The translations under genes were made by a program, and so were the position numbers. A stretch of DNA of 64,000 bases, taken from IMG/VR virus record IMGVR_UViG_2825563536_000001, positions 28,136 through 92,135 of that record; one strand, written 5' to 3'. How positions within the stretch are numbered: the first letter of the stretch is position 1; each line of letters opens with the position of its first letter. Positions 207 to 1,077 of this stretch are shown here, piece after piece. Source of the stretch: a virus. Taxonomy: Duplodnaviria; Caudoviricetes. A model generated the notes under the pieces. The model was not told where the DNA came from. It ran no database searches and saw only the letters and a program-made list of their open reading frames with translations.

Positions 207-529
207 GCGGGTACACGCCGTGGCACCCGTCGATGCAAACCGACGAAGCCCGAGCGGCAGTGCAGGAGTGGGCGGCCCGCGCCACCTTCCACGACCCGCA
301 CGACCCCGAGATGCTGATGTGCCTCGACAAGGGCGACATTGTGTCCCGCTACCTGCTGCTCCTGCACCAGCGTGACCACGAGCGGCGCAGCACTGCCGAG
401 CATCACGCCGCCGAGCTGCGGCGCCTGCGCGAGACGGTCGCGGCCGCGGGGCGGTGGTGGGACCACTGCCGCAGCCTGCGCCGGCGCGGACGCAAGACAG
501 CCAACCTGACTGACATGGAGACGAATTGA
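203..529 (+). CDS. hypothetical phage protein
   Basis: GTG start coupled to upstream stop; 3' part of ORF 98..529; stop overlaps next start. Confidence 0.6.
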   Translation: MSGYTPWHPSMQTDEARAAVQEWAARATFHDPHDPEMLMCLDKGDIVSRYLLLLHQRDHERRSTAEHHAAELRRLRETVAAAGRWWDHCRSLRRRGRKTANLTDMETN

Positions 530-1077
530 GCACTACCCTGACCGCTGCCGACATCGCCGTTTCGGCGCTCGACGAGCTGATGCAGCGGTCGAACCAGTTC
601 CGCAAGTACGCGATCACGGAGCGCGACACCAACGCCCGGCTCGGCACTGTGTCGCCGCCGTACCTGCGCCGCGACGTCGTGCACGCGTTCGTGCTCACCG
701 AGTCGGCGCCCCGCGGCATCGCGGTACCGCTCGATCGGACGCTCAACATGTCGATCGCTGTGCGGTTCAGGGATTTGTGCCAGTCGCCCGCATGGTTCGA
801 GCACATGCACATCGCGCCCGCGATGCAGGCTTTCGCCGAGAAGCTCGACTACGAGGTGGCGAAGTTCGCGCGCGCCAACGGGGAGGGCGATCCGATCGCG
901 CTCGCGTCGGCGCCGCTGCCGATCGGCTTCCCCGGCCTCCCGCCGGGACGCGAGGCTGTCGCGACCGGTGAGGGCGTATCGCTGCGGGCCGTGATGCAGT
1001 ACGACATCGGCAAGATGAGCGAGGTCGTCAGCCTGGATGTGCTGTACGGGCTGCGCGTGATCGAAGGTGCCGCATGA
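526..1077 (+). CDS. internally deleted paralog of the major capsid protein (A-domain missing)
   Basis: GGAG RBS + TTG; blocks [22 protein letters not shown] and [26 protein letters not shown] align with MCP 60850..61785. Confidence 0.75.

Follow-up and report, generated by a model that had tools for sequence, protein, structure and literature searches.

The stretch of DNA analysed here, referred to as the window, comprises 64,000 nucleotides (bases 28136–92135 of a 92,135-bp IMG/VR virus record) and belongs to a 92-kb phage that carries its own terminase, portal, scaffold and major capsid protein (MCP). Close to the first base of the window, the phage encodes a second and shorter capsid-like protein, which we call the mini-MCP. 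The features of the two genes and of their products are the following.

517..529, plus strand: GGAG ribosome-binding site and TTG start, read from the sequence, with the GGAG (517–520) 5 nt ahead of the TTG.
526..1077, plus strand: mini-MCP gene, 183 aa, recognised from its open reading frame, BLASTP to the phage's own MCP, a family of homologues and a structural model (pLDDT 83).
544..606, plus strand: N-arm helix (codons 7–27), keeping the hydrophobic pattern of the MCP N-arm, according to the model and a column comparison.
643..735, plus strand: E-loop region (codons 40–70) with the motif HAFVLTxSAPRG, the most conserved block within the main subgroup of the family.
787..876, plus strand: spine helix of the P-domain (codons 88–117) in the model, aligning to MCP 98–124.
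871..894, plus strand: short linker of 8 residues (codons 116–123), which in the alignment occupies the position of MCP ~125–244, the A-domain.
895..1059, plus strand: beta-sheet of the P-domain (codons 124–178), homologous to MCP 246–296 by BLASTP and the model.
1074..1304, plus strand: gene for a 76-aa protein to which no function is assigned, translationally coupled to the mini-MCP gene through an ATGA overlap.
60850..61785, minus strand: gene for the full-length MCP, 311 aa, of the P22_CoatProtein type from which the mini gene descends.

The mini-MCP gene reads from a TTG at 526–528 to a stop codon at 1075–1077. Its start overlaps the TGA stop (527–529) of the preceding 98-codon gene in a TTGA, its stop overlaps the ATG (1074) of the 76-codon gene, and the latter overlaps in turn the TTG start of ribonucleotide reductase beta (1301..2326); these overlapping starts and stops make the mini-MCP gene one link in a tightly coupled plus-strand operon, which continues beyond the reductase with a 117-aa protein and two cREC_REC-domain proteins. 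The operon of the mini-MCP and reductase genes lies outside the head module, on the strand opposite to that of the MCP gene and ~60 kb away from it. The 76-aa protein is 96–99% identical in two related contigs (L001 and L002) and is confined to the closest relatives of this phage, being absent beside other family members. PADLOC and Pfam searches of the immediate neighbours of the mini-MCP in the window returned no defence or counter-defence call.

The reductase gene (1301–2326) is also found in L002 but is missing at the same place in L001, a 94%-identical contig from Rhodococcus hoagii, and the immediate surroundings of the mini-MCP are therefore themselves mosaic. The two consecutive cREC_REC (cyclic-phosphate processing receiver) proteins occupy 2682–3649 in the window and L001:4411–5598 in the relative (scores 1.8e-17 and 2e-3); an RtcB RNA ligase is encoded on the opposite strand, a few kb upstream, and together they possibly form an RNA-repair module. 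The interval 3585–4634 of the window holds a minus-strand gene for an Arc-like ribbon-helix-helix repressor (PHROG 6506, 7e-18) and, divergent from it, a gene for an acidic protein of 250 aa whose N-terminus is hydrophobic and which contains GSLGS-type repeat units. ARAGORN predicts a tRNA-Ala(CGC) at 4981–5075 that, at 95 nt, is longer than is usual for a tRNA.

Judging by its gene content, this phage is probably temperate. A 447-aa minus-strand ORF at window positions of about 24558–25900 (match at G000 52693–53337) is a tyrosine recombinase (Phage_integrase, 51 bits summed) and a ParB_N protein is encoded at G000 15643–15855, a combination that suggests a temperate or plasmid-prophage lifestyle and fits the presence of a relative in an R. 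hoagii isolate assembly. Its full-length MCP matches Pfam P22_CoatProtein (7e-33, 114 bits) and PHROG 283 (7e-64), and it shares 62% identity with the MCPs of Gordonia phages Aleemily, ObLaDi and Cafasso; the scaffold gene lies at 61811..62710, likewise on the minus strand.

BLASTP against this 311-aa MCP aligns the mini-MCP in two co-linear segments, residues 124–180 with MCP 246–298 (46% identity, E 6e-11) and residues 57–130 with MCP 67–138 (34% identity, E 1e-8). PHROG 283, the ‘major head protein’ family, matches the C-terminal part of the mini-MCP (2e-8), and Pfam PF11651 (P22_CoatProtein) scores 21 bits over the C-terminal 55 residues only, under its 24-bit gathering cut-off. A profile of three family sequences searched against 1.8 billion proteins recovered full-length capsid proteins with E values as weak as 2.8e-10, every one of them matched in two stretches. 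In a 147-sequence alignment, as in BLASTP, MCP residues 125–244 face gaps in the minis, and the seven MCP residues that the alignment sets opposite the mini linker (191–197) are probably placed there by an alignment artefact. The C-terminal 10–13 residues of the MCP (299–311 or 302–311) also have no counterpart, the mini-MCP terminating ahead of the last A-domain strand.

In the HK97 topology, the spine helix leads into the A-domain, from which the chain continues through the long P-domain strands to a final strand back in the A-domain. When the A-domain boundaries on the phage's own MCP are assigned from this established topology, the two stretches missing from the mini-MCP appear, at the level of aligned sequence, to be exactly the two parts of the A-domain. 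A split gene, with the A-domain encoded elsewhere, was considered and rejected since the genome contains no MCP-like piece besides the MCP and the mini-MCP; a family search with the 76-aa product gave no match.

A structural model agrees with this assignment. AlphaFold given three family sequences only returned an unusable model (pLDDT 30), and the 147-row alignment was needed to reach a pLDDT of 83.4 and a pTM of 0.81. The resulting model consists of a helix at 7–27 (N-arm), a hairpin at 53–68 (E-loop), a strand at 71–79, a helix at 88–117 (spine) and a P-domain sheet of four long strands (124–129, 143–148, 151–160 and 165–178), so that the N-arm, the E-loop and the P-domain (spine helix plus long beta-sheet) of the HK97 fold are predicted to be present and the A-domain element absent. 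The best solved match in Foldseek is the MCP of Mycobacteriophage Douge (E 1e-4, probability 1.0), followed by the coats of P22, Sf6 and CUS-3 and by encapsulins. In an exhaustive structural scan with the same model, the best 50 matches were all HK97-fold shells, with Z scores of 9.4 for PfV, 8.8 for encapsulins, 8.5 for lambda gpE, 8.2 for T4 gp24, 7.9 for the Douge MCP and 7.6–7.9 for HK97. Each of these alignments covers 111–152 residues that are spread from one end of the target to the other, which is what skipping of the middle domain would produce. The alignment underlying the model consists mostly of full-length MCPs, so that its resemblance to HK97 shells does not constitute evidence independent of the sequence homology. 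If the model holds, the P-domain half of the HK97 fold may fold and persist alone.

Several small uncharacterised phage proteins in BFVD also match the model moderately, the best being A0A6B9WTQ7 (170 aa) from Escherichia phage nieznany, with a TM of about 0.5 and a probability of 1.0; by their predicted folds, these may be unrelated capsid-like proteins without an A-domain from other phage groups.

The original prediction had described an intact 183-aa reading frame co-linear with the phage's own MCP, in which MCP residues ~125–244 are swapped for a short linker and the last strand is gone, and had read this as a deletion of the A-domain with the N-arm, E-loop and P-domain kept; the two BLASTP segments, the 147-sequence alignment, the AlphaFold model and the fold search all bear this out, the linker being counted at 8 residues. 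Its placement of the gene in a non-structural region, behind a ribosome-binding site and translationally coupled, is likewise borne out by the operon shared with the reductase, the GGAG and the TTGA and ATGA overlaps.

The mini architecture is common to at least 12 sequences, all from uncultured or assembly-borne actinophage contigs; the family members matched end to end in one stretch are P0001–P0005, P0007, P0015, P0023, P0046, P0047 and P0168. P0001, on a 101.9-kb contig from the R. hoagii isolate assembly whose DNA is about 94% identical to this phage, is 92% identical to the mini-MCP of the window, and P0002 is 53% identical to it; P0023, P0047 and P0168 form one subgroup. P0005 (182 aa) and P0007 (184 aa) are adjacent on a 56-kb contig (L012:10001–11100), with a 4-base overlap, and represent an old tandem duplication, given that they are just 34% identical. 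The family is rare, with about 11 mini clusters versus 895 MCP clusters (the latter at E<1e-10). A tblastn search with four family members detected no mini among 50,697 records of isolated phages, the hits being full-length MCPs or nothing, and Gordonia phage Aleemily has the MCP and lacks the mini. Pattern scans of viral, genome and metagenome collections yielded no further minis, and five IMG/VR pattern matches were rejected as full-length MCPs of 311–312 aa.

In a maximum-likelihood tree over 166 shared columns, all minis form one clade (ultrafast bootstrap 88, SH-aLRT 97, present in 84% of bootstrap trees), nested in a Cafassovirus-like MCP group that includes the phage's own MCP, the Aleemily MCP and the MCPs of two other mini-carrying contigs. 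End branches measure 0.3–1.4 changes per column for the minis, near-identical pairs excepted, versus 0.1–0.46 for the MCPs of that group. A single origin of the minis accords with their common deletion boundaries, although long-branch attraction may have contributed to the grouping. The original prediction had described a second major-capsid gene, aligned with this phage's own MCP; the paralogy stands, but the tree excludes a recent duplication of the resident MCP and shows the mini as an old lineage with a single split from this MCP type. The MCPs of carrier phages are 57–67% identical to each other, whereas the minis are 16–54% identical among themselves and 18–38% identical to any MCP. The mini family is therefore old, monophyletic and accessory, and it evolves much faster than its parent capsid proteins.

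Such divergence could suggest that the mini-MCP is a functionless remnant of an old capsid-gene duplication, drifting to loss. Some mini pairs do show dN/dS values of 0.7–0.9, and one copy, on contig L018 (L018:9960–10060), carries relative to L021 a one-base insertion in a run of C that shifts the frame near the 5′ end, in the N-arm region. This frameshift stems either from a mistake in assembly or from a lesion that arose very recently, and the near-identical relative P0168 (168 aa, on another contig, in the same 90%-identity cluster) has an intact ORF. Copies with as little as about 16–30% identity have uninterrupted ORFs and retain both the architecture and conserved residues of the core, the ribosome-binding site and translational coupling are present, and dN/dS is 0.28 between the window mini and the R. 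hoagii copy and 0.20 between P0003 and P0046, values that indicate purifying selection similar to that on neighbouring genes. We consider decay towards loss to be the most improbable of the explanations discussed here; the family with the same deletion, its intact ORFs and the two low dN/dS values instead uphold the earlier view of the gene as selected rather than decayed.

Two of the more divergent pairs can be compared with their flanks. The window mini and its counterpart on L002 are 49% identical in protein and 65% in nucleotide sequence (dN/dS 0.78), whereas the next gene is 99% and 95.6% identical; because the dS of the mini is three times that of the flank, replacement of the allele by recombination is as likely here as accelerated evolution. 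P0023 and P0047 are 65% identical, with a dN/dS of 0.71 and a dS of 0.42, and the adjacent portal gene has a dS of 0.31 and encodes a protein that is 98% identical; for this pair, faster protein evolution is the simpler reading.

Variation is unevenly distributed along the protein. Between the window mini and P0002, 28 of the 31 residues of the E-loop region (residues 40–70) are identical, as against 13 of 27 in the N-arm, 16 of 30 in the spine helix and 15 of 36 in the sheet, and the E-loop region retains 85–90% nucleotide identity versus 43–75% elsewhere in the gene. A motif in the E-loop is invariant in the subgroup (H53, A54, V56, L57, S60, A61, P62 and G64). Residues that are nearly invariant in MCPs are replaced in the minis, both in E-loop columns (F59, G64, I65, Q68 and E72) and elsewhere (K282 and S287).

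The genomic settings of the minis differ among lineages. Those of the main subgroup lie in early or replication regions, with the following contexts outside the window.

L009: mini P0003, after genes for SSB and an RNase_T/DnaQ-like exonuclease.
L009:5744–5950: gene of the Acb2/Tad1-hairpin family, in the same early operon, ~2 kb upstream of P0003.
L011 and L019: mini preceding genes for an Rv2179c-like exonuclease, ParB and ParA.
L012: mini after a Band_7 gene.
L014–L017: minis after genes for primase-helicase, SSB and an HNH protein.

The Acb2/Tad1-hairpin family is of the anti-CBASS/Thoeris sponge type. In the P0023/P0047 subgroup, the mini immediately precedes the portal gene in three contigs, as the last gene of an accessory island between terminase and portal; the island (L018:2948–12189 and an ENA contig) contains about 15 small genes, including Tad2-like (PF11195), WDGH, DUF1003, NMN-transporter and VIT1 genes. 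Tad2-like or Acb2/Tad1-hairpin genes are thus near minis in some contexts only. A conserved partner gene was sought and rejected, no neighbour being common to the whole family.

The association of the main subgroup with SSB, DnaQ/RNase_T or Rv2179c-like exonucleases, primase-helicase, ParB and ribonucleotide reductase raises the question of an exapted scaffold with a non-capsid function, in which a body made of P-domain and spine would bear the new E-loop for use in DNA replication, nucleotide metabolism or RNA repair. That the new E-loop motif is the sole strongly conserved subgroup-specific element would fit such a role. However, no neighbour or partner gene is conserved, the second subgroup sits in a quite different location, and hypervariability would be unusual for a replication accessory factor, which makes this explanation unlikely.

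The position of the P0023/P0047 subgroup immediately upstream of portal, together with the capsid ancestry of the family, could point instead to a minor part in the virion, such as that of an accessory subunit at a special position or near the portal. This is very unlikely: the A-domain is missing, the main subgroup is found in an early-type operon on the opposite strand, well away from the head module, and most phages with this MCP type, including Aleemily, do not have a mini.

In the HK97 fold, subunits meet around the five- and six-fold axes through their A-domains. Lacking these contacts, and judging from what is known of the HK97 fold, the mini-MCP would be unable to close a capsomer and hence would not be a shell subunit. 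This sets it apart from its nearest comparators. The P22-coat-type MCPs (PF11651, PHROG 283; those of Aleemily, ObLaDi and Cafasso, and Douge gp8, PDB 8zdh) have a homologous N-arm, E-loop, spine helix and P-domain sheet, but the mini-MCP is without the A-domain (MCP 125–244 and the C-terminal strand), carries other residues at the contact positions that do not vary among MCPs and is rare; in this phage its gene lies outside the head module, and it evolves several-fold faster. The vertex protein gp24 of T4, a paralogue of gp23 (PDB 1yue), is like the mini-MCP a second and diverged capsid-protein copy in the same phage and is among its structural matches (Z 8.2), yet gp24 has a complete fold, is encoded by a head-module gene and serves as a shell subunit, whereas the mini-MCP has no A-domain and is encoded with early genes. 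Ccm of SaPIbov5 is a capsid-protein homologue that redirects the capsid size of the helper (PMC8569155; PDB 7rwz). It resembles the mini-MCP in being a capsid-protein homologue other than the main shell protein (structural match Z 6.3), but it is encoded by a satellite, has a full HK97 fold and enters the shell, whereas the mini-MCP is encoded by a phage and does without the domain needed for the capsomer. Encapsulins, T4 gp24 and Ccm all have the complete fold and enter shells; the mini-MCP is incomplete.

A protein that does not join the shell could still act on its assembly, as a modulator or dominant-negative subunit that uses its N-arm and P-domain to bind MCP, scaffold or procapsid intermediates. 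It could either tune or hold back the phage's own assembly or poison that of superinfecting relatives or satellites. In P22-type coats, the N-arm and the P-domain carry inter-subunit and scaffold contacts, and the mini-MCP retains the N-arm helix pattern and the P-domain core. In addition, the MCP type is the same in the three of three carrier phages whose MCP was readable, exclusion of relatives is plausible for a probably temperate phage with a tyrosine integrase, and one subgroup is directly upstream of portal. Against this role, MCPs evolve slowly while minis evolve fast, and the identity matrix lent no support to co-evolution of each mini with its cognate MCP, showing no clear extra similarity between them. 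The E-loop residues invariant in MCPs are lost in the minis, the main subgroup has no conserved linkage to head genes, and early co-expression with replication genes would risk self-poisoning. On balance we regard action on head assembly as somewhat unlikely.

Our tentative preference is that the mini-MCP is a soluble, non-assembling mimic of the peripheral half of the capsid protein, acting in conflict between phage and host or between phages. The minis are rare, patchy, mobile between genomic sites, duplicated and diversified, two pairs are hypervariable, the tandem pair has diverged to 34% and counter-defence genes lie near some minis, all of which are circumstantial pointers to a role in conflict. 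For the roles put forward in the original prediction, those of an immune decoy, a dominant-negative poison or a modulator of capsid size, the pointers are likewise circumstantial, namely the accessory occurrence of the gene, its fast evolution and the anti-defence genes near some minis. Since the carrier MCPs are conserved while the minis change fast, the conserved MCP is unlikely to be their target, and a fast-moving partner is more likely to lie outside the head module. Under such a mechanism, the mini-MCP would be produced as a soluble protein that does not assemble and would occupy a factor that recognises the P-domain or the E-loop region of the capsid protein, with the remodelled, family-specific E-loop as its working surface. 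The target would most plausibly be a host capsid-sensing immune protein, to which the full activating ligand would not be delivered.

Free capsid protein is a major alarm signal for bacterial immunity. To our knowledge, a phage counter-measure that derives from the capsid protein itself has yet to be described. A precedent for the mimic reading is CapRelSJ46, which binds mainly the P-domain of the MCP (PMC9712102), and DSAD1 competes with the tail tube for DSR2 (PMC11087589). The cases of CapRelSJ46, Avs7/8/10 and DSAD1 illustrate that free capsid protein triggers immunity and that phage proteins can occupy the trigger site of a sensor; unlike the role proposed for the mini-MCP, none of these counter-measures is a cut-down paralogue of the trigger. 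It is possible, if doubtful, that phages blunt capsid-sensing immunity with such a paralogue, made early, occupying the sensor without activating it and diversifying in an arms race.

Several observations count against a capsid mimic. Avs7, Avs8 and Avs10 recognise the A-domain of the MCP (preprint 10.64898/2026.01.04.697583), the domain that is absent from the mini-MCP. The E-loop of the mini does not mimic the MCP surface, since residues invariant in MCPs are replaced there, the two pairs with the lowest dN/dS are under plain purifying selection, and the counter-defence genes accompany minis in only part of the contexts. Furthermore, we know of no capsid sensor in Rhodococcus.

A search of the literature found no description of an HK97-fold paralogue without an A-domain. 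The ‘truncated major capsid protein’ of an actinophage dendrogram preprint was considered as a precedent and rejected, because the term there means manual trimming of models. The mini family is previously undescribed. The mini-MCP lends itself directly to a test of capsid mimicry, since the protein is compact (183 residues), conserved and cloneable, its parent is clear, its deletion is defined and its new loop is sharply conserved. If the mimic reading is true, cut-down paralogues of immune triggers would constitute a ‘trigger-mimic’ class of anti-defence genes. The same constructs would also serve to test the alternative, in which the protein is a naturally occurring dominant-negative inhibitor of assembly, and a stand-alone P-domain half of the HK97 fold would bear on the evolution and engineering of capsids.
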